Assembly (NCBI GenBank): GCA_964350645.1
Contig: CAYGJY010000001.1
Span: forward strand, 326,648-390,647
Length of the DNA: 64,000 nucleotides
Origin: an uncultured Candidatus Saccharibacteria bacterium
GTDB taxonomy: Bacteria; Patescibacteriota; Minisyncoccia; Phycocordibacterales; UBA918
Reading direction: 5' to 3'
Under the pieces are notes generated by a model. It worked only from the letters and a program-made list of their open reading frames with translations. It was not told the DNA's origin and searched no databases. The first letter of the stretch is position 1; the number at the start of each line of letters is the position of its first letter. This document shows, piece after piece, positions 1-16,828 of the stretch. The position numbers and the translations under genes were made by a program.

Positions 1-724
1 GACCTTCAAATCCACCAGTAAATTGTTCTTGATTTTCTGCATAGATATTCTTGAAAAGATCAGTAAAGCCGCCCTCTTTATAGCCTGGTACAGTGAAGCG
101 TGTTCCTGCTACTTTATTATATTGTTCTCCCGTTCCATCTGAGAAAACATCAGCTTGAATTTGACCCGGAACTTGCTGCCCGCCACTTATGCCGGCTGCA
201 GGTACAACAGCCGATTCGGTAATTCGGTAAATTAATCCATCTGGTGACTCAAAGCGGGTATTTTTTATTAAGCGTTCAGCACTGTCAGAATTATTGTAGA
301 TAGTAATTCGTCCAATTGCCTGATCACTCACCTCGTCTTGGCCAGTTGCTGTAACTTGACGTTCACCTTCAGCCTCAAGGGTCATGATTTCATAGGTAAG
401 TTCTCCCGCAGTCGGTGTGCGGTAGGCAGTAAAGGACGCGTTCACATTTGGTTCTCGATTGCGAGGATAAATGGTGAGGTCTGCCCCACCCAAGAGTATA
501 CTAGTGATAAATCCAACACCAAAAATAGCAAAGAAAAGTGCGAAAGCTATAACGTATCGTGATCTATTTTTAGCCCGGCCATCCCGCACTCCGATGCGAA
601 CAGTGCCGTCGTCTTCAGCAGTTACTTCATGTTCACGAGAGCGAACCATGTCTGGTGGGGGTTGGGTACGTCTTTTTCTTGGCTGTGACGGTTTAATGTC
701 TTGAAGATTCCACTTTTTATCCAT
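1..724 (-). CDS. Hypothetical membrane-anchored protein, partial (5' complete, 3' end beyond window start)
   Basis: My own translation of the minus strand from ATG at 722-724 stays open to position 1 (>240 codons, MDKKWNLQDIKPSQPRKRRTQPPPDMVRSREHEV...). A transmembrane-like helix YVIAFALFFAIFGVGFITSILLGG lies about 60 aa in. It is absent from the ORF track because no stop lies inside the window. The plus-strand ORFs 338..562 and 471..704 are antisense to it. Confidence 0.55.
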   Translation of the reverse strand, partial: MDKKWNLQDIKPSQPRKRRTQPPPDMVRSREHEVTAEDDGTVRIGVRDGRAKNRSRYVIAFALFFAIFGVGFITSILLGGADLTIYPRNREPNVNASFTAYRTPTAGELTYEIMTLEAEGERQVTATGQDEVSDQAIGRITIYNNSDSAERLIKNTRFESPDGLIYRITESAVVPAAGISGGQQVPGQIQADVFSDGTGEQYNKVAGTRFTVPGYKEGGFTDLFKNIYAENQEQFTGGFEG

Positions 725-741
725 AGTATCAAGTATACAGT

Positions 742-1953
742 TTACAGCTGCTCAAAGGTAGCGCAGTTCTCCGGATTGTGGAAAAAGTGCGCTGATAGCA
801 GTATGGCCGTGTCGTTGAGCTGATGATCCGGCAGTAACTTACTGGTAATGAGGTGGATACCATGTTCAGCTTTGGTAGCTTTGTGAGCAGCCTGCTTAAC
901 AATGTCTGAAAAGAAAGTCTCACATCTATCATCGGTATGAATAAACAACGGCCGAGGAATCGCTAGTTGATCACCCGTACGTTTAAACAAGGTGGCTATT
1001 TCTTCGATAAATGCATCTATCACTACCTGGAGTTCAGATTTTTTAGCTTCAGAGAGAGTTTCTACAAAGGTTGTGTTTCCACGTATAAACCCCAGAGCTT
1101 CTTCATGAGGGATATCACAGAGCGCTGCTATGTCTCTAGCTAGGGTATATATGCCAGATGGTGTATGTGTTGTGTAACGAAGTACGCCATCGCGGACGAT
1201 ACCAATTTCTGTTGCTTCAGAGGTGATATCGATCAGACAAACTTCGGTTGTGTCCGGGCGCATTTTTTGTAAAACGCAATAGAAAATGAGCATGAACGTG
1301 TAGCGCTCAAGTATTACGCTTGGTAATACTTTTTCTTTAGATTCCCTGATTGCATCAAGCAATTTTTTTTGTGAGATACCGCTAACGTGTGTGACGCTCA
1401 GCTTCTCTGCAGTTTGCCCGTAGACGCTACCGACGTTGTAGTCGTTAGCTGAGACATGGATAGTTGCACGAGTAATAAGTTCTAAACCCAATTTTTTTAT
1501 AAGATCATCTTCATCAATCAAGTCAATTGCTTGCTTTTGAGCTGTCTCGATGAGTTCTGTTACAAGACGCTTGGTAATTTCAAATGGCTCATCTTTGTGG
1601 TACGAGACAGATTTTGTGACGGTGTATGACCAGGGTGCAGAAATAGCTATTTGCATAGTCGCAACTTTAGCGTGTGAATCGTGTTGTTTAAGAGACTGAA
1701 TTCCTTCGCTGCCAAGTATCAGCATACAATTGACAAGTGTGGTAGTAATATTTTTAGAGCTATCTGTCGCAGCACTGTCTTTCTTTAGGATCATCCGTTC
1801 ACGATGTGTCCAAATTATTTCAGGACTATTTTCAAGTGGGTCTGAGGCTACAATAGCTAAACCAACGCTGCCTGAACCAATGTCAACAACTACACCATAG
1901 CGTCCATCTGGACCGTGCTTACCTAGACCGAACATATGTCTTAAGTATAGCAA
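742..1953 (-). CDS. Actin-like ATPase fold protein (FtsA/PilM/Ppx-GppA superfamily)
   Basis: The N-terminal phosphate-1 motif GVVVDIGSGSVGLAIV and a later LIDITSEATEIGIV ... DIAALCDIPHEEALGFIR block are typical of the ASKHA/actin-like fold. The real start is probably at the internal MFGLGKHG. Exact family is not resolved. Confidence 0.4.
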   Translation of the reverse strand: MLYLRHMFGLGKHGPDGRYGVVVDIGSGSVGLAIVASDPLENSPEIIWTHRERMILKKDSAATDSSKNITTTLVNCMLILGSEGIQSLKQHDSHAKVATMQIAISAPWSYTVTKSVSYHKDEPFEITKRLVTELIETAQKQAIDLIDEDDLIKKLGLELITRATIHVSANDYNVGSVYGQTAEKLSVTHVSGISQKKLLDAIRESKEKVLPSVILERYTFMLIFYCVLQKMRPDTTEVCLIDITSEATEIGIVRDGVLRYTTHTPSGIYTLARDIAALCDIPHEEALGFIRGNTTFVETLSEAKKSELQVVIDAFIEEIATLFKRTGDQLAIPRPLFIHTDDRCETFFSDIVKQAAHKATKAEHGIHLITSKLLPDHQLNDTAILLSAHFFHNPENCATFEQL

Positions 1954-1998
1954 GAGCGCGGCCTTCGGCCGCGCTCGACTATCCCCTGTTCTCTAAGT

Positions 1999-3936
1999 CT
2001 ACTCTAAGATTGCCTTGATGCGACGGACGCCAGCGGAAGATGATTCTTCTTTTTTGATTTTGAACGTGCCTTCAATTGATTCTAAAGTGTCAACGTGTGG
2101 ACCACCACACAGTTCTCGTGAAAAAATAGTGCCATCATGACCGGTCATGGTGTATACCTTTACTTCGTCCGGATATCGATCCCAGAAACTGGCTTCGATT
2201 GTTGCGTCGGCTTGAGCCACATCTTTAGGCATAATTTCAGTACTCACGGTACCGCCAGTTTTGATGGCGTTATTTACCCATTCTTCTATCTTATCTAAGC
2301 TCTCTCGCTCAACTTTTTCTCCATGAGTGAAGTCAAATCGTAAACGTTCCCCAGTGATGTTTGATCCAGCTTGATGGACGTGGTCGCCAAGGAAATGGCG
2401 CAAGGCGGCAAGCATTAAGTGGGTTGCGGTGTGGTATTGAACAACTTTGTCTGACTGATCAGCTAGTCCACCCTTAAATTTCTGTTCTGCACCAGCTCTA
2501 GATTTCTCTCGATGTTCTTCCATAAGTTTGGCAAAACCTTTTAGGTCAACCACTAAGCCTTTTTCTGTAGCAATTTCTTCAGTAAGCTCAATTGGAAAAC
2601 CGTAAGTAGTGAAGAGTTCGAATGCGTTTTGGGCGCTAATCGCCTTAACTTTAGTGGGCTCTTTTGCTGTATCAGGAACTCTAGCTCCGTCAACTTCTTT
2701 ACTAGCAAGATGTATCTGAACGTCGATTTTATTAAATTGCTTGAGTCCCTTTTCAAGTGTTTTACGAAATTGCTCTTCTTCGGCTGCAATAGCAGCTTTG
2801 ATGTCGTCGGCTTTTTCTCCCAAGGCGCCATAATGGTGTTTATAGGTATCAATGACACTTTGAGACAAGCTTTTGAACTCGCCTGGTGCTACTCCGAGGG
2901 TATCTGCGTAGCGGACTGCACGTCTAAGAAGTCGTCGAACAAAATAACCTTGTTCGGTATTACTTGGGAGTACGCCATCGCCAATCATGAAGACAGCTCC
3001 ACGAATGTGGTCAGTGACTACTCGAAAGGCTTCTTGGTCATCTTCATATTTTTTATCAGCCAAGGTTTGTAGTTGTTCTACTACTGTCCACAAAAGATCA
3101 ACTTTAAACATGTCGGGAGAATCAATTGCTGCCGCAGCAATGCGCTCTAATCCCCCACCGAAGTCAACATTTTGAGCCGGAAGTGGTTCAAAACCGTTTT
3201 CAGTTTTGAGGTATTCCATAAATACGGAGTTACCAATCTCCATGAAGCGACCGCAGTCACAGTTCGGATGACAGTGCTCGCCCCACTTTGGATCGTGTTC
3301 AATTTGAGTAAATTCATAAAAGACTTCGCTGTCTCCTCCACCAATTTCTCCAATTGGCATATTTTCTGGCTTGCCTGCTCGACTCCACCAGTTTTTAGAG
3401 CCGTCGTAATAGAAAATTCTTTCCCCTTTTTTCATTCCTCGAGTGTAGCCATCTGCTTCAGAACCGATTTCAGCTACTTCTTTTGAAACATTGCGTTCAG
3501 TGAAAAGTCGTTGCCAAATCTCAACCGCTTCGGTGTCTTTTGGTACACCAGCAGAATCATCGCCCATGAAGGCTGTGACGTAGAGACGTTCTGGATCGAG
3601 ACCAACTTCGTCAACCAGAAAGCTGTAAAACCAAGGTAGTTGCTCTTGCTTAAAGTAGTCTCCGAGTGACCAGTTACCAAGCATTTCAAAGAACGTCGTA
3701 TGACGATTGTCACCTACTTCTTCAATATCCTCTGCTCGAAAGCATTTCTGTGAGTCAGTGATACGGGTGCCTTTAGGATGCTTTTCCCCCATAAGATACG
3801 GCACAAGGGGTTGCATACCACTACCAGTAAACAGAGTGGTTGGATCATTTTCAGGCACTAGTGCTGACGAGGGCACGATGGCGTGACCATTTTTTGCCAT
3901 GAAAGCAAGATATTTTTCACGAATTTGATTACCTGA
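1999..3936 (-). CDS. alaS: Alanine--tRNA ligase (short form lacking C-terminal domain)
   Basis: The class II catalytic core (IVPSSALVPENDPTTLFTGSGMQPLVPYLMG, CFRAEDIEEVGDNRHTTFFEMLGNWSLGDY) and the editing-domain HxxxH motif (HTATHLMLAALRHF, GGPHV) are both present. The ORF-track start at 3987 is a TTG. A GTG at about 3936 gives an N-terminus MSGNQIREKYL that aligns with the canonical AlaRS N-terminus. Confidence 0.9.
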   Translation of the reverse strand, partial: SGNQIREKYLAFMAKNGHAIVPSSALVPENDPTTLFTGSGMQPLVPYLMGEKHPKGTRITDSQKCFRAEDIEEVGDNRHTTFFEMLGNWSLGDYFKQEQLPWFYSFLVDEVGLDPERLYVTAFMGDDSAGVPKDTEAVEIWQRLFTERNVSKEVAEIGSEADGYTRGMKKGERIFYYDGSKNWWSRAGKPENMPIGEIGGGDSEVFYEFTQIEHDPKWGEHCHPNCDCGRFMEIGNSVFMEYLKTENGFEPLPAQNVDFGGGLERIAAAAIDSPDMFKVDLLWTVVEQLQTLADKKYEDDQEAFRVVTDHIRGAVFMIGDGVLPSNTEQGYFVRRLLRRAVRYADTLGVAPGEFKSLSQSVIDTYKHHYGALGEKADDIKAAIAAEEEQFRKTLEKGLKQFNKIDVQIHLASKEVDGARVPDTAKEPTKVKAISAQNAFELFTTYGFPIELTEEIATEKGLVVDLKGFAKLMEEHREKSRAGAEQKFKGGLADQSDKVVQYHTATHLMLAALRHFLGDHVHQAGSNITGERLRFDFTHGEKVERESLDKIEEWVNNAIKTGGTVSTEIMPKDVAQADATIEASFWDRYPDEVKVYTMTGHDGTIFSRELCGGPHVDTLESIEGTFKIKKEESSSAGVRRIKAILE

Positions 3937-3988
3937 CACAGTTAAAATGTTAGACCAACAATGGCTTAAAATATAGCATAGATGCAAT

Positions 3989-4264
3989 TTATTGCGAGAG
4001 AGCCGTCATGACGTTTGCAAAGCACGTGTCTCCTGAACAATCGGAAAAGGGTGTGAACCCATAGAAATAGATTTCTAGAGTGTATCCAAAAACTATTAAT
4101 ACAATACCTGCTAGTGTCAGTACTCGCTCAACTTTGAATGATTTCAACACCTTTTTATCAATACGATGTTCGTGCGCAATTTCGCTGTGAGCAATAATGA
4201 CGCCAGCTGCCAGCAAGATTTTTCCAATAACACTAACTGTTAATCCCCAAAATAATAGAATCAT
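3989..4264 (-). CDS. Small hypothetical membrane protein
   Basis: A 91-aa ORF with two hydrophobic helices, whose stop lies 1 nt before the alaS start region. No recognisable motif. Confidence 0.4.
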   Translation of the reverse strand: MILLFWGLTVSVIGKILLAAGVIIAHSEIAHEHRIDKKVLKSFKVERVLTLAGIVLIVFGYTLEIYFYGFTPFSDCSGDTCFANVMTALSQ

Positions 4265-4282
4265 ATTATGTCAATATTATAG

Positions 4283-6118
4283 TTATTTTTTCTGGTTCAC
4301 CAAGTTCGAAAATGTATAAACGTCGTTTTCAAGTTGTTTAAGACCTGCTTCGAAAGAGCTAATCTTGTTAGTTTGAATTCCAATAGCTTTGAAGATATTA
4401 GCAACTGTGTCTGATTTCCCGGCACACAAGAAGGAATCTATTTGTTCGATATAATTTGGATCTTGGTAGTACTTCTCTGCCATAACATTGCTCATCAAAA
4501 TCCCAAAGGTGTAGGTGTAGACATAAAAACCATACCGAATATGTGACCAATACACATAACTATACCCGTCTTCCGGGCTTACTGTTACTCCCTCACCAAC
4601 ATAGGCTTTAAGGTGTTTTTGCATGAGATCACGCATTTCGATTCGCGTTAGACTACCTTCGGTCCGGATTCGGTTATGTAATTCGAGTTCATAATTGAAG
4701 CAGGCAATCTGACGCTGAATTGTTGCAATATTTTGAGCCACACGTTCATGTAGTAACACAATTTTTTGACTGGCATTTGCCTGTTCATAGAATTTTTTAA
4801 ATACGAAGTTTTCGAATAATGTACTAGCTGTTTCAGCGGTTGTGATTGAGTGGCCTTGATACAAAGGTGACTGAGTCTTACTGCGTTCACCATGGATTGC
4901 ATGACCCATCTCGTGCGCGAGGGTCTGTAATGAGCGGATATCATTAGTGTGGTTGAGAAAGACTTTAGTTGGCAAGTTCACAGAGTCAGACATGAAAGCA
5001 CCACCACGTTTCCCTTTACGGGGATACACATCAATCTGACCATTAACAAGCATGTTGTCAAAAATCTGACCGTATTCGGTCTTGAGACCATAAAACACAT
5101 CACGACAAATGTCGACAGCTTGGTCAAAAGTAATTACTGGAGTTTCCCCAATAGAATCGTACTTTTGCGAGTAGTCGAGAGTTGGTACGCCATGAAAAGT
5201 CGCTTTTGCTTTATAGAACTTTCGACTGAGTGCAAAACCTTTTGTACTTACAGCTGCTACGAGTGCTTCAATGCTTTTTTGGTCATCTTCGTAGGAAAGA
5301 ACGGTCTCACTGTATGGTAATGAGAAATGACGTAATTCATCTTCAGTTTTCTTGGTGGTAATAACCGCGTTGAGCTCGTGTTCTGCTACCTCGCTGATTT
5401 GCTCTAGTTCAGATAAAACTAATCGCCAGAAAGTAGGCTTTTCTTTTGAAGGTAAGCTGTTGAGTCGTTCTAGAGCTTCATTGATTGGGATTGATTCTTT
5501 TTTGTAGACGATACTTCGATTACTAATAATTTTCTCAGTGGCAGCAACCCACATGCCACTGGCTGGACCTGCTGTCAGATTGAGAATCCGTTCTTCTGCT
5601 TCAGATAGGTTGTGTTTAGCTTCCAGAAAGACTCTAGACAGATAGTAATGAAAGGGTTGTAAAGTAGTGTCGTTCAATAATTTTTTCTGGTCAGCCTTTG
5701 AAATTTTGCCCAGTTCAAGTTCAAAAAACAATAGTTCGTTGCCAGCCTTTGTGAGGCGTTCTGAAATCAAAGCTAGCTGCTTCTCGGCAACGTCGTCGTT
5801 GGCGTTGACCGCATGACGGAATCCAAAATACCTCCCTGGTTTACTAGTCTCAGGCATTGCTGCAAGCCTAGTAAGATCAACAAGAGCTTTGGTTAGTGTT
5901 TTGGTTGAGGTAGCGAAATCACTTCCACGGTAGCGTTTGGCAAAGTGTTTGTAAGCAGTAATGGTTTTCTTTAGATCAGCTTCGATTTGTGGGTCTTTGT
6001 CATTTTTGTAATATAAGGCTTTAAAATCCCATTCCGTTTTGATCTTACCAAGTTTTGGTAAGGTTGATGTCGGTTCGTACTTAAAAGGCTTCCCGGTCTT
6101 CTTTGGTTTTTTTGACAT
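4283..6118 (-). CDS. pepF: Oligoendopeptidase F, M3B family metallopeptidase
   Basis: A 611-aa protein with the zinc-binding HEMGHAIHGE (HEXXH) motif in M3-family context and an overall PepF-like length and layout. Confidence 0.8.
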   Translation of the reverse strand: MSKKPKKTGKPFKYEPTSTLPKLGKIKTEWDFKALYYKNDKDPQIEADLKKTITAYKHFAKRYRGSDFATSTKTLTKALVDLTRLAAMPETSKPGRYFGFRHAVNANDDVAEKQLALISERLTKAGNELLFFELELGKISKADQKKLLNDTTLQPFHYYLSRVFLEAKHNLSEAEERILNLTAGPASGMWVAATEKIISNRSIVYKKESIPINEALERLNSLPSKEKPTFWRLVLSELEQISEVAEHELNAVITTKKTEDELRHFSLPYSETVLSYEDDQKSIEALVAAVSTKGFALSRKFYKAKATFHGVPTLDYSQKYDSIGETPVITFDQAVDICRDVFYGLKTEYGQIFDNMLVNGQIDVYPRKGKRGGAFMSDSVNLPTKVFLNHTNDIRSLQTLAHEMGHAIHGERSKTQSPLYQGHSITTAETASTLFENFVFKKFYEQANASQKIVLLHERVAQNIATIQRQIACFNYELELHNRIRTEGSLTRIEMRDLMQKHLKAYVGEGVTVSPEDGYSYVYWSHIRYGFYVYTYTFGILMSNVMAEKYYQDPNYIEQIDSFLCAGKSDTVANIFKAIGIQTNKISSFEAGLKQLENDVYTFSNLVNQKK

Positions 6119-6683
6119 CTAAAATAAAGTTTTTATATTCGGTATAAACATGGTTGAACTCATGAATAATATCATTTTTAAGGCGTGAGTTGAGGACATT
6201 ACTGATGTCTTGATACATCAGGAGACGATCATCAAGGGTTCCTTTAAATTCCTGCATAAAGCGTGAATGGTCATCGAAGTATTCCTCCACGATCGTACGC
6301 ATATTATGGATTTTATCAGCAGCAGAAATTATAAGAGCCGGATCTGAGGCTTTTTTAAGTTTCTTGGCATAGTGTTTTTTTTGTTCTAACCACGAATGTT
6401 TTTTAGTGTCGGTATCTTGCGGTTCTGACAAATCAACAATGATATCGCGCACGTCGCCACCAAAATCTTCGACGAGTTCATCCTCAGTATAATCAGTGTC
6501 TTCTAGTGTGTCATGAAGCAGGGACGCTATTAGTGTGTCCTCGTCGTCAGAGTAATCGCGGACAATCATCATAACGGCCATCAGATGGGTAATGTATGGC
6601 AATGGCACCGAACCTTTACGAAGCTGATTCTTGTGCAAAATTGCCGCAGCACGAATGGCTTGTTCGATTCGGTAGGTGTACAT
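6081..6683 (-). CDS. Stand-alone RelA/SpoT-type HD domain hydrolase (small alarmone hydrolase-like)
   Basis: IEQAIRAAAILHKNQLRKGSVPLPYITHLMAVMMIV...LLHDTLEDT matches the SpoT/RelA HD hydrolase domain motifs, and there is no synthetase domain. 200 aa. Confidence 0.7.
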   Translation of the reverse strand: MYTYRIEQAIRAAAILHKNQLRKGSVPLPYITHLMAVMMIVRDYSDDEDTLIASLLHDTLEDTDYTEDELVEDFGGDVRDIIVDLSEPQDTDTKKHSWLEQKKHYAKKLKKASDPALIISAADKIHNMRTIVEEYFDDHSRFMQEFKGTLDDRLLMYQDISNVLNSRLKNDIIHEFNHVYTEYKNFILDVKKTKEDREAF

Positions 6684-6684
6684 C

Positions 6685-7062
6685 TTAGTTTCTTGCTTTT
6701 CTAATAGCTTTAATTAACTGCTCCGCTGGAGCTTCAAGTGCTGCAATAATAGCTTTATTTGTGTCAACTTCACGACGCGCTTTATCTGCGGCAACTACAA
6801 TACTCTTAGTATCGTCATACTCTCGTTGCAGCTGGTTCTTTATACGGCTATCTTCTTCATTTTTAATTTGGACTTCGAGATCCTTTTGCTCTTTTATGAG
6901 CTGTGGCAACTCTTTGGCTAAATCTCTATCAGCATCGGCTTTTTTAACAAATGCTTCAACTCCAGCTATTAATTCAAGAAGAGCTGTGCTGCGCGCAGTT
7001 TGGCCACCTGATCTATTTATTACTTCAATTGCTTTTCTGGCTGCATCTTTCGCTGTAGACAT
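6685..7062 (-). CDS. Hypothetical coiled-coil protein
   Basis: A 125-aa charged, heptad-rich sequence with no motif. It sits in a tight operon, with 1-3 nt gaps to both neighbours. Confidence 0.4.
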   Translation of the reverse strand: MSTAKDAARKAIEVINRSGGQTARSTALLELIAGVEAFVKKADADRDLAKELPQLIKEQKDLEVQIKNEEDSRIKNQLQREYDDTKSIVVAADKARREVDTNKAIIAALEAPAEQLIKAIRKARN

Positions 7063-7064
7063 AT

Positions 7065-7325
7065 TTAATTCAATTTAACTCCTTCTTGCAATAATAGCGC
7101 ACGTTTCTTTTCTATACCACCGCGGTTATAGCCACCTAAGGTGCCATCTGTACGGATTACCCGATGGCATGGTATCTCAGGAGCGTAGTTTGCTGCCATG
7201 ATGTTGGCCACTGCGCGAGCGGCTTGTGGGTTGCCAGCCTTCTCGGCTACTTGTTTGTAGGTTAGCACCTCACCCTTAGGTATGTTTCTAACAATGTCTC
7301 TGACTTTGTCGGCAAAAGTCTCCAT
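7065..7325 (-). CDS. Methylated-DNA--protein-cysteine methyltransferase family protein (C-terminal DNA-binding/active-site domain only)
   Basis: IPCHRVIRTDGTLGGYNRGG contains the PCHR active-site signature of the MGMT/Ogt C-terminal domain. At 86 aa it lacks the N-terminal domain. Confidence 0.7.
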   Translation of the reverse strand: METFADKVRDIVRNIPKGEVLTYKQVAEKAGNPQAARAVANIMAANYAPEIPCHRVIRTDGTLGGYNRGGIEKKRALLLQEGVKLN

Positions 7326-7328
7326 ATA

Positions 7329-8111
7329 CTATTTTTTTGTGTTATGAATAGCAAGAAGTTTTTTACCACAGGCTTCACGGTATGGACAAAATTCACAGGC
7401 AGAGCCAGTTTCAGGAAACATATCTGAATTAAGACAGGCTTTTATACTTTTTAGTGTCTCAGGTATCCAGTCGAGTTCAGCGGTAACCGGCACGAGGGTG
7501 GTTTCAAAAACAAGTTTGTCATCAAAAGCATCGACTGCTTTGTCGGCGTTAGCATAGACTAAGTAGCCAAGTTCTTCGGTCTCAAAACCATTCGCTTCTA
7601 ATAGCCAGCGATACACCCCAAGTTGACGCTTATATTGAGCTTCCCAGGGGCTGTCACCTAGTGCTTCGATTGTGCCTTCCTTTGAAGTAGACTTATAATC
7701 AACCACTATAAGCGAACCTGTTGGTGTCACCCAGATATCATCGATTGCACCGCTGACTACAAGGCCAGTTTCAGAATCGGTAGTTTCGATGCCTTCAAAA
7801 TTTTCGCGCCACGTGTCCATGTTTTTATGAGCAAAAGGAACCGCGTTGATCTTGTATTTTTCCATTATAGGATGCGGGGTAGCGGCTGTACGATGAACAT
7901 CGAATTCCTTTTTAAACAATTCATCAACAGCAATGTTGAGATTAAACGATGGAAAACCAGGACGTTTAGTACCAAGTTTATTGTCAATATAAAAGCACCG
8001 CGGGCACTCCATAAAGAAATCAATTTTTGAACGTGAAAGACGCCATTTTGCGCCACCGTAATTCCATTCTGAACTGCGATTTGGATTGTATTTGTATGTG
8101 TATTCTGCCAT
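7329..8111 (-). CDS. Cas4-like PD-(D/E)XK nuclease with 4-Cys (Fe-S) cluster
   Basis: An N-terminal CPRC cysteine and a C-terminal CEFCPYREAC (CxxCx5C) give the Cas4/DUF83 cysteine arrangement. The core nuclease motif is IVVDYKS (D...EXK-like). 260 aa. Confidence 0.65.
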   Translation of the reverse strand: MAEYTYKYNPNRSSEWNYGGAKWRLSRSKIDFFMECPRCFYIDNKLGTKRPGFPSFNLNIAVDELFKKEFDVHRTAATPHPIMEKYKINAVPFAHKNMDTWRENFEGIETTDSETGLVVSGAIDDIWVTPTGSLIVVDYKSTSKEGTIEALGDSPWEAQYKRQLGVYRWLLEANGFETEELGYLVYANADKAVDAFDDKLVFETTLVPVTAELDWIPETLKSIKACLNSDMFPETGSACEFCPYREACGKKLLAIHNTKK

Positions 8112-8130
8112 TGACTTAGTATACCAGACA

Positions 8131-8160
8131 CAAAAAAAGCCGGTTGTGCCGGCTTTTTTT
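8131..8160. terminator. Rho-independent terminator (bidirectional-looking)
   Basis: aaaaaaAGCCGGttgtgCCGGCTttttttt is a GC stem flanked by an A-run and a T-run. It lies just downstream of the stop of the 8176..8718 minus gene. Confidence 0.6.
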
Positions 8161-8175
8161 GTGTCTGTGTAAAGA

Positions 8176-8718
8176 CTACTTGGCTACAAAAGTTTCAACT
8201 GCCCCACTTACTTGGACATCTTCAGCTAGGTTGAAAACGCGATCACCATTTTCGCTGTAGAATACAACAGCGTAGGTATTTCCGGGTTCTGTTGCTCGTT
8301 GTAGAACGATTGATTGCGGCACAAGACCTTGTTCTTGACTGTATCGAACAACTCCGAGCAGACCAGCAAGCTGGCCATCAGCGTAGTCACGAACTCCGAT
8401 CCAGCCCTCATCTGATGGGAACGTAGCCCCAGCGAGTGATACTTCAAGACCAGCATCTTGATCCATGACTGAAGCGTCGCCGTCGCCTACAGGAAGCTCT
8501 GCAACTGGAGTGCTAGGAACAGCTGTGTCTGAGTCACTATCTTCTGAATCAGTACCACCTTCCATCATTTCACTTTCTTCAACTGAATCGTCATGATCCA
8601 TATGTTCTTTTGCTTCCGGTGAACCACTAAATACCCATACGAGCAAACCTCCAATAAGGAGACCGGCAATAAATGCTACGACGGTCTTCTGGCTTTCTTG
8701 CTTTTCTTGTTCTGACAT
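8176..8718 (-). CDS. Hypothetical membrane-anchored protein with highly acidic linker
   Basis: An N-terminal transmembrane helix (VVAFIAGLLIGGLLVWVF) is followed by a D/E/S-rich low-complexity stretch and a C-terminal globular domain. No motif. Confidence 0.45.
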   Translation of the reverse strand: MSEQEKQESQKTVVAFIAGLLIGGLLVWVFSGSPEAKEHMDHDDSVEESEMMEGGTDSEDSDSDTAVPSTPVAELPVGDGDASVMDQDAGLEVSLAGATFPSDEGWIGVRDYADGQLAGLLGVVRYSQEQGLVPQSIVLQRATEPGNTYAVVFYSENGDRVFNLAEDVQVSGAVETFVAK

Positions 8719-8774
8719 ATTGAAATCTGAATATTATTCGCTAAATTGCTTTTATAGCGCGATTATAGCAGGTT

Positions 8775-9635
8775 TTAGTCAGAGTTACATAGTTGACGAG
8801 CCTCAGAAAGTACTGCCTCAGTTTTTTTGGTACCAATATGCGCGTGACGCAATAAGTGTGGTTTATTGATAATATCACTACAAATAATGGCCCCACGTTT
8901 TATTAAAGCTTGTTTTTGAGCGCTTGAAAGTGTCTGTAAGACGGTAATCGGATAAAGACCAGCTCGTTGGATACGATCGTGCAGATTATCATGATGTGGA
9001 TAATCCCAACTGAGTAACTTTAACCCCACACACTCAGCATAACGCTCAGCTGTTGAAGTGAATTTTGTGTTAGTGGCAATCCAGAGTTCGCGTATGCCAC
9101 AAATATCTTTGTTACAAATCTTTATACCAGTGAGATCTAGCATGCGAGCATATGAATAGAGAGCTACTTGAAGATCAGATTTAACTCCAGGACGGGAATG
9201 AAATTTAGCTTCCATCACAAAACTATGGTCTTCTTTGTAGGCGACAACGTCGATTTCATGTTCGACACACTTTCCAGTTAGTGTCTGGCGAGTTCTGGTA
9301 GTGTATCCTTCGCGCTCTATTAAGCGAGCCATAAAATCTTCAAATGGAAAACCAGTTGGCCCTAAATTGAATAAAGCTCTCCGAAGTGAATAACGAGCTG
9401 CAACCGGTACTTCATTTTCGCGCAGGAGTGCAAATGCTTGGCTATATATCTCTTGGGTTTTAATTCCATCGTATAGCTGAGCCTCGATATGACGTACGAT
9501 TTCGCTCACTTCGTCTTTCGTTGCCCCAGATCGTCGTAATGATTTTTTTAATTTTTCAACTCGAAAGGTCTCGATGTTACCGTCGGCTTTAAGTACTTGT
9601 ACAGACATTAGGAAATAATACCACCTCCCAAACAA
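8775..9635 (-). CDS. ATP-cone domain fused to Mrr-like PD-(D/E)XK restriction-endonuclease-like domain
   Basis: The N-terminus (VQVLKADGNIETFRVEKLKKSLRRSGATKDEVSEIV) resembles the ATP-cone of NrdR/RNR. The middle region (EIDVVAYKEDHSFVMEAKFHS) has a D...E-A-K pattern like the Mrr catalytic core. It overlaps the mnmA start by about 28 nt. Confidence 0.55.
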   Translation of the reverse strand: MFGRWYYFLMSVQVLKADGNIETFRVEKLKKSLRRSGATKDEVSEIVRHIEAQLYDGIKTQEIYSQAFALLRENEVPVAARYSLRRALFNLGPTGFPFEDFMARLIEREGYTTRTRQTLTGKCVEHEIDVVAYKEDHSFVMEAKFHSRPGVKSDLQVALYSYARMLDLTGIKICNKDICGIRELWIATNTKFTSTAERYAECVGLKLLSWDYPHHDNLHDRIQRAGLYPITVLQTLSSAQKQALIKRGAIICSDIINKPHLLRHAHIGTKKTEAVLSEARQLCNSD

Positions 9636-10669
9636 ACGTCATCTGCATAGAGTACACAAGATTGCCCCGCTGACGGAATGTCGTGAGCTTCGTTTATCTG
9701 TACTATAAGCGCTTTATGTGTCATGGAAGAAATTTTAGCCTTAAGTGGCCGCTGACGATAACGTGTCTGGAGCAACACTGTTGTTCCTACAGTCAACGTA
9801 TCTGTGAAGAGATTGAGGCTCGTAAGTGCCAGCTCTCCACTCTCTGGCTTCGTTGGCTTAGTGTGACTAACCGTTATGGTATTGGTTATTAGATTGCGCT
9901 CAATTACATAATATGGTGCTTGTGTATCACTATGAACGTTGATGGTAAAACCGTGGCGCTGACCGATAGTATAAACTTGAACACCTTTATGCTCCCCTAT
10001 TACATCACCAGTTTCATTTAGTACCTCACCAACTTGTAAGTCAATAAAGTGACTTAAAAACTCAGGAATATCAATGTGTCCAAGAAAACAGACCCCCTGA
10101 CTATCTTTCTTGGTAGCCACTGGAATCCCCGCTGCTAATGCTTCTCTTCTGATTTGTTCCTTGGGTGAATTACCAACTGGGAGTAAGACGTGTCTGAGGT
10201 GCTCTGCTGGAATCATCCACAAAAAATAACTCTGGTCCTTTTCAGTATCAACACCACGAAGTAGCTTTGGTGATTCGACGTTACTCACTTGGGCATAATG
10301 ACCAGTGGCAATATAGTCGGCTCCGTGCTTCATAGCAAAGTCATAAAACACACCAAATTTTACTGCTTTGTTGCAAAGTACATCAGGATTTGGTGTACGC
10401 CCAGCAGCATACTCAGCTATAAAATAATCAGCCACCCTTTGTTTATAGGCTTCTTGTGCATCACACATTAAAAATGGCATCTGCAGATGAGCGGCAACGC
10501 GCATAGCATCGAGACGCTCTGCCTCCCAGTTGCAGTCAATAAAATCAGGTTGCCAAACACGGATAAACACGCCGACCACATCATAGCCAGCCTGTTGAAG
10601 ACGAAGTGCTGCTACGGCAGAGTCAACACCACCTGAAATTCCCACAAATACTCTTCCCCGCGCTGTCAT
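9608..10669 (-). CDS. mnmA: tRNA-specific 2-thiouridylase MnmA
   Basis: The PP-loop VFVGISGGVDSAVAA, catalytic cysteines, and a 353-aa length and domain order typical of MnmA. Confidence 0.9.
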   Translation of the reverse strand: MTARGRVFVGISGGVDSAVAALRLQQAGYDVVGVFIRVWQPDFIDCNWEAERLDAMRVAAHLQMPFLMCDAQEAYKQRVADYFIAEYAAGRTPNPDVLCNKAVKFGVFYDFAMKHGADYIATGHYAQVSNVESPKLLRGVDTEKDQSYFLWMIPAEHLRHVLLPVGNSPKEQIRREALAAGIPVATKKDSQGVCFLGHIDIPEFLSHFIDLQVGEVLNETGDVIGEHKGVQVYTIGQRHGFTINVHSDTQAPYYVIERNLITNTITVSHTKPTKPESGELALTSLNLFTDTLTVGTTVLLQTRYRQRPLKAKISSMTHKALIVQINEAHDIPSAGQSCVLYADDVCLGGGIIS

Positions 10670-10691
10670 GATGTCGCTAGGCTAGCACAGC

Positions 10692-11690
10692 CTAGCGGAG
10701 ATAGCGAGCGATATTTGCCGTGTGTTCGGTGTAGGTTTCTGCGAAGTGAAAAACTCCATCCGGATCTGTAATGTAGTAGAAATATTCAGATGGTGTTGGC
10801 TCCAAGACAGCCTTAATAGCATCAAGTCCAGGGTTACCAATTGGCGTTGGCGTTAGTCCACGATAGAGGTACGTATTATAAAGAGAATCAATCTTGAGGT
10901 CTTCAGGAGTTAATTTAGACAAAGGTTTGTCGAGTATATATTCAATAGAAGCATCAGCTTGGAGTGGCATATCGATCGCTAAACGGTTTTGTAGGACACT
11001 GGAGACAAGTTTCATTGAATCAGCCGAGTTCGCTTCTCGTTCGAGAAGAGAAGCTAAAACAATAATTTCATATTCATTCAATGGATGAAATTCAATTTGA
11101 GAGCGCAGTGGTGAAATTTGTTCTTCGTAGGTGGATCGGAGTAAGTCATAAAACTCAGCATCAGTAAATTCTTCTGGCAAGAAATAGGTCTCAGGGAATA
11201 AAAAACCTTCGTCAGTTTCTGCATAAGAGATAAAGGATGTGGGTTTAAAATTATCGAGTTTTTCAGCGGCAATAGCAGCAATTTGCTTGACGGTACTGCC
11301 TTCTGGAATAGTGACCCGCACGAGCTCATCTTTCGGGCCAATTTTTGTAATTACTGAAGCAACTTCGGTAACTGGGACTGGATTGGCAAAAGAATATGTC
11401 CCTGCCCGAATGTCTGTGGCGTCATGGAGAAAAACTAAAGTTAGGTAAAGTAAATTACTAGAAGCGACATAATCATTTGCTTCAAATTGTTCAACTATAT
11501 CGCGCACTGTGCTGCCAGGTTCAATAGTAATTTGTGAATTAGCTGGGAAGTTAGTTGGAGCAGCATAATTGCGTGCGAGATACAGACCACCCACAATGCT
11601 GATAACCAAGGATATTAAAGCGCAGGTGATAACTATCAACTTAAGTGTTTTTATCAGAGAATGTGATTCTGGTTGGTCTTGGGGAATCAT
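10692..11690 (-). CDS. mltG: Endolytic murein transglycosylase MltG (YceG-like)
   Basis: An N-terminal transmembrane helix plus the YceG signatures LQADASIEYIL and YNTYLYRGLTPTPIGNPG. Confidence 0.8.
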   Translation of the reverse strand: MIPQDQPESHSLIKTLKLIVITCALISLVISIVGGLYLARNYAAPTNFPANSQITIEPGSTVRDIVEQFEANDYVASSNLLYLTLVFLHDATDIRAGTYSFANPVPVTEVASVITKIGPKDELVRVTIPEGSTVKQIAAIAAEKLDNFKPTSFISYAETDEGFLFPETYFLPEEFTDAEFYDLLRSTYEEQISPLRSQIEFHPLNEYEIIVLASLLEREANSADSMKLVSSVLQNRLAIDMPLQADASIEYILDKPLSKLTPEDLKIDSLYNTYLYRGLTPTPIGNPGLDAIKAVLEPTPSEYFYYITDPDGVFHFAETYTEHTANIARYLR

Positions 11691-13078
11691 GGTTGTGTTG
11701 GTGGTTCAAAAATTGGAAGATTTGATGGTGCTTCCGCTCGGTTAGAGGCAATACGGTCAAGCGTTGGTGTCAGTGCTACTGTGCCCGGAATATGAAACAT
11801 GGTCGCCAGTTCTTCAACAGTCCAAATCTTTGGTTCGTCGCCCTGACAATGTGGAGCAAGTTTACGCAATTTGTAATGTTTGTGTTCAAGCGCCCTATAT
11901 TTTGGTAGCAAGTCTCCAAAAGGGTCTGAAAACCACATGTAGTTGAAATCTGTTCGCCATCTGACACCAATACTACCGCGTCCCACGCTGTCAAAAATAC
12001 TAAACGTTCGGTTAAGTGGATTAAGTAAGTCTGAGCGGAAGTGGCCCTTGCGCGCTGCATACAGGTAGCGAATATTGCCTCGAAAAGCGTGCTTCGTGGC
12101 ATTTCGTTCGATCGCTTCAACATCTTCTCGTTCGCCAGGAGAGATGCGTGGTGATCCTTCAAAATCAGTGTCCCCGGCATTGAGGGGACCTTTGGTTTCA
12201 TGGTCACGTTTAAGAAGTTCGTCTACCCGTTCTTCTGCCATTTTGTTCCAGCTTGGACCTTCAAACAACCGCAGATCACCTCGGACAAGACTTGGCTTAT
12301 TGGCAGCCCGGATAATAATTTGGAAATAGAGTCTTTCATTTGGTCCGATCTCTCCAAGACGATCAAGCAGAATTGTGATCGGATCTACTTTTTCTTCTTC
12401 TTTGGGATTGTCTTGTAGACCAAACTCAACGTACGTCTTAATCGGTCCCCATTTTTTATCTTTTTTGTTTAGATGAGTAGACCAAATTTCCCATTCTGGG
12501 TCGCCGACCTTAATTTCGCCCGCATAGTCCACTGGCTCCTCTACGAGCTCAATCCCTGGGTATTGGGAGTATATGCTGGGCACAAACTGTTCTTTCATTT
12601 TTTTGCGTGAAATGTTCACATAAAAGCGGACATCTCCCCCAATTGAAACCATCTCAAGCGAAGCGGGTTGCGGGGCTTTCCCTTGAATCCAGCCTTCATA
12701 GAAGTTATCCGGAGTAGCTTGATTCCAGAGCTGGTTTAAGACAAACTCCATTGCTTCAGGGGATTTTAGAACCTCTTGAGGTAATTTGATTCGGTATTGA
12801 ATTCTGCCCTGTTGTAAATAAAAACGCTTCCTAATGCCATCAAAATGTCTGAAGTGCCAAATAGAAAAGGTTATTAATGGTAGCCAAATCGGTGCCAAGG
12901 TGAAGAAAAAGGAAAATCCAGATGGTAACAATGTGTCAGAAACTGACCACACAGTGTAAAGCAGAAAAGCGCAAATGCCCGTAACAATATACGCAAAGTC
13001 AAGGTTATTTTCTGAGAGCCAGCTAATGGTGCCGCCAATGTACGGCAGGTCATTAAACGTAAAGTTAGTAAACGGCAT
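11687..13078 (-). CDS. Hypothetical membrane protein (large soluble C-terminal domain)
   Basis: A 460+ aa protein with N-terminal hydrophobic helices and no motif. The ORF-track start at 13123 runs into a 20-bp perfect hairpin, so an ATG at 13076-13078 (MPFTNFTF) is the more plausible start. It overlaps the mltG start by 4 nt. Confidence 0.5.
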   Translation of the reverse strand: MPFTNFTFNDLPYIGGTISWLSENNLDFAYIVTGICAFLLYTVWSVSDTLLPSGFSFFFTLAPIWLPLITFSIWHFRHFDGIRKRFYLQQGRIQYRIKLPQEVLKSPEAMEFVLNQLWNQATPDNFYEGWIQGKAPQPASLEMVSIGGDVRFYVNISRKKMKEQFVPSIYSQYPGIELVEEPVDYAGEIKVGDPEWEIWSTHLNKKDKKWGPIKTYVEFGLQDNPKEEEKVDPITILLDRLGEIGPNERLYFQIIIRAANKPSLVRGDLRLFEGPSWNKMAEERVDELLKRDHETKGPLNAGDTDFEGSPRISPGEREDVEAIERNATKHAFRGNIRYLYAARKGHFRSDLLNPLNRTFSIFDSVGRGSIGVRWRTDFNYMWFSDPFGDLLPKYRALEHKHYKLRKLAPHCQGDEPKIWTVEELATMFHIPGTVALTPTLDRIASNRAEAPSNLPIFEPPTQP

Positions 13079-13096
13079 AGGCAGTCTTATTGTACA

Positions 13097-13139
13097 ACAC
13101 ACCGGCCCAGTTTTGCGAAGCAAAACTGGGCCGGTGTGT
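13097..13139. terminator. Perfect 20-bp hairpin with GAA loop (putative terminator of the 13152..14177 gene)
   Basis: ACACACCGGCCCAGTTTTGC-gaa-GCAAAACTGGGCCGGTGTGT. There is no clear U-tract. Confidence 0.45.
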
Positions 13140-13151
13140 TGAAAGCATATA

Positions 13152-14177
13152 TTATTCAGTGATTACGTAGGTGCCGTTACTGAGGCGTTTGAAAAGATTT
13201 CCGTCTTGGAGATTGACTACGATAGTGTTGTCTTTGACGTAGCGTTCTTTGCGAACTTTGTCGATTATTTCTTCACGAGAGAGTGGGCCGTGTTTTTCAA
13301 GAATATCCCGAAGGACATCCTTTACCACACCAGCCGAGTAGCCCCACTCCGTAAGAGCGTAGAGACCGCGACCTACTAACACAAAGCGCTCGTCTTTAAT
13401 AAGTTCGTTGTGGGTAGTTGCAGTGTGAGCTTTACGACTAAACAGTTCTTCGATTGCCTCAGCGACTTCACGGAAGTGCATCGGTGAGCCATGTCGTTTG
13501 ACTACCAAGTAAGCGTAATCACGGATCCCTTTCACCCGCACGTTTGGGCTCGCAGCGTGTCCCCATTCGCCAAGTGGATTACTTGAAATTTCTTTAGAAA
13601 TTTGTAGCCAGCGCTTTAAAATTGCTTCGTCTTGTTTGTCTGCAATGCCAATCAGTTCATTACGAAATCGTTCCAAAACTTCTTCTTCTGAAACAAGTTC
13701 ATCTCGATTAAGTGACTGATGAACATTCTTGAGACCTTTCTCAACAATGTCAGCTATTTTCTTTTCTGTGTACCAACGATGTGCGTATGAGGTATTTTCT
13801 TTACTTCGATAGAATGGGTCACCAAGTACAAGGAGGAAATAGATATCGTTACGGGTCGCTGGGTCGCTGGCGATCTCTTGCAATAAGATATGTTCAGGGA
13901 TAACACCACCACCAAGAGTTTCAATCACTGTGTGCAGCTGCTGAAAAGCATCTGAAAATTCTTTATATACGTCAGATTTCTGAATTGATTGAATACCATA
14001 GTTTTCAATCTGGCGGACTCGTTCACGAGTAATACCATAGGTTTGACCAATAGCCTCTAGAGTATAGGTGTCAGTGTCTTTACCTAGACCATAACGTTTC
14101 TCGAGTACATCTCGAGCGCGATCAGGCAAAACAGCCAACATTTTAGTGCTTACTTGTTTTGGTTTAAACGTAATCAT
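13152..14177 (-). CDS. DNA-binding protein with N-terminal sigma-70 region-4-like HTH and C-terminal HARE-HTH-like winged helices
   Basis: LEAIGQTYGITRERVRQIE is a region 4.2-type HTH. Two C-terminal segments end in ...GRGLYALTEW and ...NGTYVITE, as in HARE-HTH/RpoE-delta-like domains. 341 aa. Confidence 0.45.
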   Translation of the reverse strand: MITFKPKQVSTKMLAVLPDRARDVLEKRYGLGKDTDTYTLEAIGQTYGITRERVRQIENYGIQSIQKSDVYKEFSDAFQQLHTVIETLGGGVIPEHILLQEIASDPATRNDIYFLLVLGDPFYRSKENTSYAHRWYTEKKIADIVEKGLKNVHQSLNRDELVSEEEVLERFRNELIGIADKQDEAILKRWLQISKEISSNPLGEWGHAASPNVRVKGIRDYAYLVVKRHGSPMHFREVAEAIEELFSRKAHTATTHNELIKDERFVLVGRGLYALTEWGYSAGVVKDVLRDILEKHGPLSREEIIDKVRKERYVKDNTIVVNLQDGNLFKRLSNGTYVITE

Positions 14178-14288
14178 ACTGTTGTAATTTCTAATTCCTT
14201 TGCCTCAGATCGTCAGTGATTTGAGGTAATACATCTATGCGTAGCTGTATTTGTAACATTACTGTTGACAATCGTCAAGTATCTTGTG

Positions 14289-16793: not shown

Positions 16794-16798
16794 AAAAA

Positions 16799-16828
16799 CC
16801 TCTACGTGTTTAGTAAATAACGTAGAGG
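16799..16828 (-). terminator. Hairpin plus U5 immediately upstream of the leuS start codon (terminator of upstream gene or attenuator-like)
   Basis: On the minus strand, CCTCTACG-(14 nt)-CGTAGAGG is followed by TTTTT and then the leuS ATG. Confidence 0.4.

Follow-up and report, generated by a model that had tools for sequence, protein, structure and literature searches.

Results

A predicted housekeeping operon headed by a Cas4-like nuclease

The window analysed here is a stretch of 64,000 nucleotides (positions 326,648 to 390,647 of contig CAYGJY010000001.1) from the genome of a member of the Paceibacteria, ultra-small bacteria that belong to the candidate phyla radiation (CPR). On its minus strand lie four adjacent genes encoding a Cas4-like PD-(D/E)XK nuclease (NUC), an O6-alkylguanine-DNA alkyltransferase (AGT) that consists of the C-terminal domain only (MGMT), a charged coiled-coil protein (CC) and a small alarmone hydrolase (SAH) of the RelH type (HD). 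We consider that these genes are probably the first cistrons of a vertically inherited, constitutively promoted and leaderless Paceibacteria operon, and that they encode co-expressed housekeeping enzymes, neither the parts of one machine nor a decayed defence locus. A first-pass annotation of the window had described them as a tight operon and had proposed a stress or DNA-damage module or, alternatively, the remnant of a defence island. The four genes and those that follow them are listed here in the direction of transcription.

7329-8111, minus strand: NUC, Cas4-like PD-(D/E)XK nuclease, 260 aa (open reading frame (ORF) and profile matches)
7065-7325, minus strand: MGMT, C-domain-only O6-alkylguanine-DNA alkyltransferase, 86 aa (PF01035 match)
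6685-7062, minus strand: CC, charged coiled-coil protein, 125 aa (without family match)
6081-6683, minus strand: HD, RelH-type small alarmone hydrolase, 200 aa (HD_4 match)
4283-6118, minus strand: pepF, oligoendopeptidase F of the M3 family (TIGR02290 1.6e-96, Peptidase_M3 3e-28)
3989-4264, minus strand: tm91, small membrane protein of 91 aa (ORF 18 nt 3′ of pepF)
1999-3939, minus strand: alaS, alanyl-tRNA synthetase (Pfam tRNA-synt_2c and tRNA_SAD on the public gene call; GTG start at 3939)

The four ORFs, their spacing and the overlap with pepF were recovered at exact coordinates, with intergenic gaps of 3, 2 and 1 nt between NUC, MGMT, CC and HD and an overlap of 38 nt between HD and pepF, and the domain calls of the first-pass annotation were likewise reproduced (PDDEXK_1 4e-16, Cas_Cas4 8e-6, DNA_binding_1 3e-30, HD_4 5.5e-18). 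The four genes could not be upheld as a closed unit, since the tight run goes on through pepF, the 91-aa membrane protein and alaS, and the spacing is at the background of the window, in which about 94% of the sequence is coding. Of the 52 same-strand junctions, 21 measure 5 nt or less, so gaps of 1-3 nt are the background here and are no evidence of linkage. This frequency, together with the location of 55 of the 61 genes on the minus strand, would fit unrelated genes that have come to lie together by chance in a densely packed genome, but such an accident is extremely improbable: the gene order is conserved across about 80 species, a promoter and terminator pair stands exactly at the start of NUC, and two kinds of base-repair enzyme (MGMT and glycosylases of the uracil-DNA glycosylase (UDG) superfamily) have repeatedly been recruited to one slot. 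We also noted that the public alaS call with its GTG start (646 aa) is shorter than a mechanically called ORF (1999-3987, TTG at 3987, 662 aa).

Promoter and terminator signals

Promoters and terminators were called from sequence motifs compared across loci and from RNA folding. The following signals were found around the run.

8125-8167, minus strand: intrinsic terminator hairpin (A-run, GC stem, T-run), folding at -31 kcal/mol, z = -9.55
8118-8126, minus strand: extended -10 promoter TGGTATACT, directly after the hairpin and ending 6 nt before the NUC ATG
3970-3978, minus strand: -10-like box TGCTATATT in the 49-nt gap left by the public alaS start, about 30 nt 5′ of that start
1954-1976, minus strand: GC-rich hairpin 23 nt after the alaS stop, -26.6 kcal/mol, z = -4.81, equalled in 0 of 200 shuffles
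1944-1952, minus strand: promoter TGCTATACT of the next gene, directly after the hairpin at 1954-1976

The hairpin at 8125-8167 lies inside the 64-nt gap 5′ of NUC, and none of 200 shuffles folded as well; it is predicted to end an upstream gene for a 180-aa protein and to insulate the NUC operon. Because TGGTATACT ends only 6 nt from the NUC ATG, a leaderless or near-leaderless mRNA is implied. The same arrangement recurs among relatives, as a -10 hexamer TAYAMT was found 4-12 nt before an in-frame start in 82 of 101 loci, 75 of these with the TGn extension. When a relaxed extended -10 motif was counted within 80 nt upstream of each gene (background 2.6% per random window), it was found upstream of NUC in 78/100 loci and of the 180-aa gene in 63/78, upstream of MGMT in 0/73, HD in 7/86, pepF in 6/54 and tm91 in 4/35, and upstream of alaS in 14/64, the window among them. 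A hairpin followed by a T-run within 120 nt upstream showed a similar distribution (NUC 57/78, MGMT 4/62, HD 3/68 and pepF 1/35 loci).

With promoter and terminator directly 5′ of NUC and none between the genes, these motifs support co-transcription of the four genes. We infer a transcription unit that starts at NUC and contains NUC, MGMT, CC, HD, pepF and tm91; it probably reads into alaS as the last cistron, although alaS may also have a promoter of its own, for which TGCTATATT is a possible, secondary candidate. The hairpin at 1954-1976 is the probable 3′ end of the unit. A generic scan of positions 1-17000 for sigma-70 promoters and terminators returned counts at the level of shuffled sequence, and it missed the terminator at 8125-8167 because the stem extends into the A/T runs. 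An Rfam search of the window returned tRNA-Ala only.

Matches to the strict motif on the minus strand of the window fell mostly in its small non-coding fraction, about 2-13 nt from a start codon, which points to frequent use of leaderless or near-leaderless transcription in this genome. Such TGnTAYAMT boxes, 2-13 nt before start codons on the minus strand, have their last base at 60188, 57330, 52491, 40316, 21493 and 8118.

Conservation of gene order among relatives

A scan with one genome per species returned at least 538 relatives of NUC, the best 80 loci of which were analysed; all 80 were from Patescibacteria, and the named relatives were Paceibacterota, Kaiserbacteria, Nomurabacteria and ‘Patescibacteria group’ metagenome-assembled genomes. 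Gene presence and absence were counted in the 70 loci with enough downstream sequence. The relatives share a collinear and co-directional backbone in the order leuS, a sigma-70 region 4/HARE-HTH gene, a DUF8128 gene, yceG, mnmA, a gene encoding an ATP-cone and an Mrr-type domain (ATP-cone/Mrr), the 180-aa gene, NUC, a variable slot, pepF, tm91 and alaS. Among the 80 loci, NUC had as same-strand neighbours ATP-cone/Mrr in 71, the 180-aa gene in 70, HD and mnmA in 68 each, MGMT in 62, yceG and DUF8128 in 61 each, alaS in 58 and pepF in 45, while tm91 was detected downstream of pepF by tblastn in 32.

NUC, MGMT and HD occurred in the same order in 53 of the 70 species-level loci, and most loci carry a coiled-coil ORF in the CC slot as well. 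HD was present without MGMT in 11 loci and MGMT without HD in two, and both were absent from four, so the two genes have been lost independently of each other. The arrangement that the first-pass annotation had singled out is thus present in relatives, but its conservation is not specific to the four genes, being that of a 14-gene backbone. NUC is the most conserved gene of the block, with a mean identity of 70.9% compared with 68.9% for alaS, 55.7% for mnmA and 47.8% for yceG. Rank correlations of divergence between genes were weakly positive (rho 0.2-0.55), a result that agrees with co-inheritance without testing it strongly. Beyond the 80 loci, the leuS...alaS backbone was also found in a distant locus, L113 (loci are given our own L numbers), in which the nuclease is 53% identical to NUC. 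Neither MGMT nor HD neighboured the nuclease in any of seven neighbourhoods of distant NUC homologues.

A solo Cas4-like nuclease with rearranged cysteine ligands

NUC scored 60 bits against PF12705 (PDDEXK_1; cut-off 22, 4e-16), passed the threshold of PF01930 (Cas_Cas4) only marginally (26.4 bits, cut-off 22.7, 8e-6) and fell below the curated cut-off of NCBIfam TIGR00372 cas4 (39.2 bits, cut-off 65). Its catalytic residues D124/D125, D138, K140, Q163 and Y167 are invariant in 200 of 201 orthologues and align to the catalytic core of SSO0001. The AlphaFold2 (AF2) model has a confident core (pLDDT 80.8), and its structural neighbours are mostly DNA-end and flap-processing nucleases. A search of PDB sequences with a profile of close orthologues returned nothing at E<=1 except one spurious match at 0.75; a broader profile of the NUC family did reach SSO0001.

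The cysteines of NUC had been described as the Cas4 arrangement of one N-terminal Cys and a C-terminal CxxCx5C. The CxxCx5C is indeed present in the window protein, but there are two N-terminal cysteines, not one (C36-P-R-C39), and the last Cys of the C-terminal motif is not conserved. C36, C39 and the C-terminal pair C239/C242 (CEFC) are invariant in 200-201 of the 201 orthologues, and at least 85 of 91 distant representatives share them, whereas position 248 is Cys in 62 of the 201 orthologues (31%) and in two of the 91 distant representatives. The C-terminal CxxC of the family aligns with the first two C-terminal ligands of SSO0001. As judged from these alignments, the 1+3 Cas4 pattern of the window protein is incidental and the predicted ligands of the family are 2+2 (CxxC...CxxC); the simplest reading would be a ligand swap in which the third C-terminal Cys has given way to the second N-terminal one. 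Either an Fe-S cluster or, equally, Zn could be bound at such a 2+2 CxxC site. Codon 248 (7368-7370) is polymorphic between strains, encoding Cys in the window and Ala in the strain at L082.

The family is broad, with more than 8000 relatives in 232 clusters (50% identity) at E<=1e-30 and 842 clusters at E<=1e-10, counted as cluster representatives. With a profile built from distant members, further CPR groups were recovered, including Kerfeldbacteria, Buchananbacteria, Portnoybacteria and Pacebacteria. By its profile matches and its housekeeping synteny across 80 species NUC fits the description of a solo Cas4 or PDDEXK_1 protein: it lies outside cas loci, appears to be vertically inherited and scores above the PF12705 threshold. 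Solo Cas4 proteins are over-represented and vertically inherited in CPR, where their function is unknown and roles in defence or repair have been suggested (PMC5704561), and a characterised archaeal solo Cas4 cuts DNA in a Mn2+/Mg2+-dependent manner and does not need its cluster for activity (PMC12501428). NUC differs from the Cas4-AddB-Dna2-Exo5 branch (PF12705, PF01930; COG1468) in its 2+2 ligands, which are 1+3 (C...CxxCx5C) in that branch, in its position as the first cistron of a housekeeping operon and in a highly conserved N-terminal extension (YNPNR..WNYGG.KW) within a protein that keeps about 71% identity across species.

Reasoning, here and for the other three proteins, from conserved residues and characterised relatives, we propose that NUC would cut DNA at a divalent-metal site formed by D124/D125, D138 and K140 together with Q163/Y167. 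The four-cysteine metal centre (C36/C39 with C239/C242) would staple the N- and C-terminal helices together, as a 2+2 rearrangement of the 1+3 Fe-S site of Cas4, AddB, Dna2 and Exo5.

The alkyltransferase and the repair-enzyme slot

MGMT matched PF01035 (DNA_binding_1) at 3e-30 over residues 4-83 and TIGR ogt with 83 bits, and it aligns only to residues 97-174 of Ada and 102-176 of human MGMT. Orthologues at other loci are about 84-99 aa long. No variation was seen among 78 sequences at Y23, R37 (the Arg finger), N46 (the hinge), P52-C53-H54-R55-V56, Y66 and E81. The span of the PF01035 match, the length of 86 aa and the alignments agree with the earlier description of a protein that lacks the N-terminal domain and keeps the PCHR cysteine, and MGMT is on this basis predicted to be an intact C-domain-only alkyltransferase with its acceptor cysteine. 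We rejected an alkyltransferase-like (ATL) protein, in which the acceptor Cys is replaced (Trp/Ala), because C53 is invariant, and a canonical two-domain AGT because the whole N-terminal domain is absent.

AGT activity does not strictly require the N-terminal domain, and fusions of the C-domain exist, one of them to an endonuclease (PMC10779285); C-domain-only forms have been described as fusions or as ATL proteins, not as free-standing proteins that contain the cysteine (review, PMC10779285). MGMT shares with Ada-C, Ogt and human MGMT the Arg finger of the helix-turn-helix, the Asn hinge, PCHRV, Tyr, Glu and the Glu-His-Cys network, and differs from them in the missing N-terminal domain; it shares this absence with ATL proteins, from which it differs in keeping the acceptor cysteine. 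As in the AGT-endonuclease fusions, an alkyltransferase C-domain is combined with a nuclease, but here the two are encoded by adjacent cistrons 3 nt apart, separate polypeptides known from the genes alone, and the nuclease partner has a Cas4-like PD-(D/E)XK fold. In the proposed reaction the R37 finger would flip O6-alkylguanine from the helix and the alkyl group would be transferred irreversibly to C53, all without the usual N-terminal domain.

The slot 3′ of NUC is also used by other repair enzymes. A family-1 uracil-DNA glycosylase (UNG) occupies it in 8 of the 80 loci, which include all five loci without HD; the protein carries the motifs GQDPYH and HPSPFS and matches PF03167 at 8e-17. In L113, the distant locus with the leuS...alaS backbone, the slot holds a UDG that is by motif of the family-4 type. 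The glycosylase genes located in the slot are as follows.

L054, 7358-8029: family-1 UNG
L068, 7357-8025: family-1 UNG
L075, 6969-7640: family-1 UNG
L076, 6772-7437: family-1 UNG
L078, 7056-7724: family-1 UNG
L081, 6787-7452: family-1 UNG
L113, 6355-6978: UDG of family-4 type by motif (PF03167 5e-33), beside a 115-aa membrane protein

The downstream slot of NUC thus carries MGMT and/or a family-1 UNG, or a UDG-family enzyme in L113, and this supports NUC plus a DNA base-repair enzyme as the association that recurs in different forms. The DNA-damage theme of the first-pass annotation would accordingly apply to NUC and its slot and not to HD, which shows no specific link to repair genes beyond co-transcription in one clade. 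No UNG is encoded in the window itself, and UvrA, UvrB and UvrC are encoded elsewhere in it. In two loci (L010, 6861-7544; L051, 6789-7460) homologous proteins of about 225 aa without a Pfam family are inserted between NUC and MGMT.

The small alarmone hydrolase

HD matched HD_4 at 5.5e-18, and its match to TIGR spoT_relA was limited to model positions 1-123 of 687, which bears out the view of a stand-alone hydrolase without a synthetase domain. The solved structures closest to it were those of RelH from C. glutamicum (7QOC/7QOD, 5.7e-23, a full-length alignment over residues 5-168) and from L. levettii (7QOE, 7.7e-22), both described in PMC9293644. Among 121 sequences, the Mn2+ ligands and the HD1/HD4/HD6 residues (R22, H33, H57, D58, E61, D62, D123 and N127) are kept with no more than one exception, and by residue conservation HD is predicted to be an intact RelH-type SAH, that is, a hydrolase-only RelA/SpoT homologue (RSH). 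It shares with RelH-type SAHs (and more distantly with Mesh1, PaSAH and XccSAH) the single HD_4 domain of about 200 aa, the HD1-HD6 residues and the Mn2+ ligands, and differs from them in being unpaired with a toxic small alarmone synthetase (toxSAS) and in sitting in a CPR operon with pepF and alaS. HD would act as a Mn2+-dependent hydrolase that takes the 3′-pyrophosphate off (pp)pGpp or (p)ppApp, or would act on NADPH like Mesh1 and XccSAH.

No RelA/SpoT synthetase domain was found among the ORFs of at least 150 aa in the 64-kb window, and a literature search on RSH enzymes and alarmone metabolism in CPR returned nothing relevant. A toxSAS-SAH pair was rejected: the neighbours of HD are CC and pepF, and in the 68 loci with HD the upstream slot held MGMT, UNG, a coiled-coil ORF or a few unassigned small ORFs, although the synthetase domain was not specifically searched for there.

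The possibility that the four proteins act together in an integrated DNA-damage or stress module, for instance with CC as a scaffold for the enzymes and HD resetting an alarmone signal after repair, has to be weighed against these data. In its favour, most of the 70 loci retain the order of the four genes, a coiled-coil ORF filling the slot, neither promoter nor terminator separates the genes, the coiled-coil ORF stays with HD in 10 of the 11 loci that have lost MGMT, and fusions of an AGT C-domain to an endonuclease occur naturally (PMC10779285). We nevertheless judge a dedicated four-protein module unlikely, because the losses of MGMT and HD are independent of each other, divergent lineages have UNG in place of both, none of the seven distant homologues has MGMT or HD as a neighbour, the operon is longer than four genes, belongs to the housekeeping backbone and runs into pepF and alaS, two genes that have no link to DNA damage, no alarmone synthetase was seen within 64 kb, and CC evolves too fast for a conserved scaffold with several partners. 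HD appears to ride along in the operon rather than to belong to its functional core.

The block could also be read as a nucleotide salvage system, in which NUC would degrade imported or damaged DNA in CPR lacking de novo nucleotide synthesis, gated by the (d)ATP-sensing ATP-cone protein, and HD would recycle unusual nucleotides. The fusion of a nucleotide-sensing ATP-cone to a nuclease fold just upstream, the DNA-end and flap-processing character of the structural neighbours of NUC and the promiscuity of orphan SAHs, which hydrolyse several nucleotides (PMC9765508), would all suit this account. It is very unlikely, given that a terminator and a separate promoter split the ATP-cone and 180-aa genes from NUC, that the recurrent MGMT and UNG partners point to repair of the cell's own DNA and not to bulk degradation, and that nucleoside kinases or phosphorylases are absent from the block.

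A hypervariable coiled-coil gene

CC had no family match in Pfam, NCBIfam or PADLOC. The AF2 model built from the single sequence consists of a helix at residues 2-17 and one helix of about 100 residues at 21-124 (pLDDT 86.7), in agreement with the coiled-coil protein first predicted, and CC would on this model be a fast-evolving, long-helix oligomeriser. Most loci carry, between MGMT (or NUC) and HD, a charged coiled-coil ORF of 78-212 aa on the same strand; E, K, R, D and Q account for about 50% of the residues of these ORFs, which have a median pI of 8.5. Sequence relatives of the CC of the window were found in three of the 80 loci and tblastn with CC across the 80 loci gave no match, and blastp clustering of the slot ORFs probably joins them by coiled-coil composition and not by homology.

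The variation is sharpest between the window and the strain at L082, where protein identity is 100% for HD, 99.2% for pepF, 98.9% for the ATP-cone protein, 96.5% for NUC and 90.6% for MGMT, and about 40% for CC. Nucleotide identity between the two (L082, 2360-3000) falls from about 1.00 to 0.32-0.64 over positions 6695-7112 of the window and returns to 1.00 exactly at the start of HD. A second divergent tract, at 7275-7350, covers the last codons of NUC and the first 17 or so codons of MGMT, and a perfectly identical stretch of 165 nt in the MGMT core separates it from the first. Other close pairs likewise have a slot that diverges faster than its flanks: between L100 and L099 the slot is 95.6% identical and the flanks 100%, and between L021 and L032 identity is 0.70 in the slot and 0.86-0.91 in the flanks. 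A metagenome scan with the HD protein for strain-level CC alleles returned 20 loci at 58-79% identity, with few close pairs. We rejected a diversity-generating retroelement as the source of the variation, because numerous indels and changes at every base type occur over about 420 nt, and a single recombination tract, since two divergent tracts flank the 165 nt of perfect identity. The gene is a small but real puzzle for CPR population genomics.

CRISPR-Cas and defence contexts

The claim that the window offers no CRISPR-Cas context was confirmed by a repeat search and by Pfam scans, which found no CRISPR-like repeats in the 64 kb and, apart from NUC itself, no Cas domain in ORFs of at least 150 aa. 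The gene tables of the seven distant-homologue neighbourhoods likewise held no cas genes, and the 80 orthologous loci, screened solely for the window's own neighbours, showed the housekeeping backbone on both sides. With PADLOC, NUC matched only generic Cas4 models, and nothing significant was returned for the other five window proteins searched (MGMT, CC, HD and the 180-aa protein among them), the ATP-cone protein giving weak matches at E 5e-4 and 6e-3. Viral contigs yielded one NUC match, a distant one at 25% identity, and a phage or mobile-element origin was rejected on that result.

These findings speak against the defence-island remnant proposed in the first-pass annotation: NUC is the most conserved gene of its block, its sole viral match is remote, MGMT, CC and HD match no defence model, and the locus is collinear in about 80 species. 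The misreading by which a Cas4 without CRISPR is taken for a relic of defence can thereby be set aside.

The distant homologues of NUC have other surroundings. Of the seven contexts, four were restriction or defence loci, two were miscellaneous and one was L113 with its leuS...alaS backbone. The four defence contexts are as follows.

L107, 1-5729
L109, 2407-7117
L110, 1585-7015
L111, 1-5768

One defence context had an N6_N4 methylase and ResIII nearby. In L109 the nuclease homologue lies between SMC/AAA_21 and FokI-cleavage-domain proteins, beside a type ISP enzyme and AAA_15/DUF4276; in L110 it lies beside N6_Mtase/Eco57I and DndB; and in L111 a gap of 3 nt separates it from a preceding GmrSD_N gene, with HsdR and a Shedu C-domain alongside.

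An active defence function could be envisaged in which the 2+2-Cys nuclease is a restriction-coupled degradation effector, possibly together with the ATP-cone/Mrr-like protein, and CC is an arms-race sensor, decoy or inhibitor. In its favour are the restriction and defence contexts of distant members of the family at L109, L110 and L111; the ATP-cone and Mrr_cat gene neighbours NUC in 71 of the 80 loci and abuts it in the most divergent ones; CC is hypervariable at the level of alleles, with sharp boundaries; and a defence or repair role has been suggested for solo Cas4 (PMC5704561). We regard this as improbable for the NUC orthologues themselves, which form a single-locus, vertically inherited group more conserved than alaS, the opposite of typical defence genes, and which sit in a housekeeping operon behind a constitutive-looking promoter. 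PADLOC offered nothing beyond the generic Cas4 models, and no methyltransferase or other restriction-modification partner was found among the window ORFs of at least 150 aa. Rapid evolution of the CC slot is seen in all lineages and is consistent with little constraint on a coiled coil.

Proposed organisation and significance

The favoured reading, a vertically inherited housekeeping operon, would place the elements in the order terminator, TGGTATACT, NUC, MGMT, CC, HD, pepF, the 91-aa membrane protein (and alaS) and terminator. Its functionally coherent part would be the operon head, in which a DNA-end or 5′-flap-type PD-(D/E)XK nuclease is followed by a base-damage repair enzyme, and the products of the remaining cistrons would be co-expressed with these two without physical coupling. 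The enzymes belong to known families, namely solo Cas4-like nucleases, here with rearranged cysteine ligands, the AGT C-domain, here free-standing, and RelH-type SAHs.

Several observations pull against this reading. The adjacency of NUC, MGMT and HD is kept in 53 of 70 loci despite a divergence (identity about 56% for mnmA and 48% for yceG) at which unselected gene order might erode, and there may therefore be selection for co-expression or for a physical link. The 80 loci are the nearest of at least 538 relatives, so the synteny frequencies describe one clade. Four of the seven distant homologues lie in defence islands and the gene upstream of the block has a restriction-endonuclease-like domain, so that a defence-related role for NUC is possible. 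A pure housekeeping model leaves the hypervariable CC gene in mid-operon unexplained. The -10-like box of alaS makes the 3′ extent of the unit uncertain, and the promoter and terminator calls are predictions from motifs and folding.

A more far-reaching proposal, which we put forward as a quite unlikely one, is that NUC, which is better conserved across Paceibacteria than alanyl-tRNA synthetase, is the general DNA-end processor of CPR and stands in for RecBCD/AddAB in recombinational repair and in the degradation of restricted foreign DNA, that CC is an allele-specific modulator under diversifying selection (for example as a target or decoy in conflict with phages), and that the orphan SAH, in bacteria that possibly have no alarmone synthetase, points with them to a genome-maintenance and signalling logic specific to CPR. 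Such a general role of NUC would account for the coupling of its relatives to restriction systems in other CPR.

A large part of bacterial diversity belongs to the CPR/Patescibacteria, whose DNA repair and stress signalling have mostly been inferred from missing genes. The locus provides a defined operon with predicted promoter and terminator signals and a leaderless architecture, and the steady partnership of NUC with MGMT or UNG provides a concrete repair hypothesis for the solo Cas4 of CPR. It also supplies natural examples of what appear to be a free-standing, Cys-containing AGT C-domain and an SAH in a lineage without a documented synthetase.

Neighbouring genes and other features of the window

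Upstream of the NUC operon, the ATP-cone/Mrr gene (8775-9608, minus strand) encodes a nucleotide-sensing ATP-cone, an Mrr-type restriction-endonuclease fold and an AF1548-like C-terminal domain, and overlaps the mnmA stop; it abuts NUC directly in the most divergent loci, L076 and L079. In the 180-aa protein encoded between it and NUC (8176-8718, minus strand), an acidic linker lies between a transmembrane helix at the N terminus and a conserved C-terminal domain; the protein had no match in Pfam, NCBIfam or PADLOC. Its gene has an extended -10 promoter of its own and a strong terminator. The DUF8128 protein and the sigma-70 region 4/HARE-HTH protein (11687-14177, minus strand) are kept in the leuS-alaS backbone, including that of L113.

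Two further regions of the window may be mentioned. Among the few plus-strand genes are those for an HlyD-type membrane-fusion protein and an AcrB-type RND transporter of 1087 aa (21593-26443), an efflux system that is unexpected for CPR, and at 38186-40305 on the minus strand two tandem, overlapping paralogues of D-Ala-D-Ala ligase are encoded, of 386 and 323 aa.

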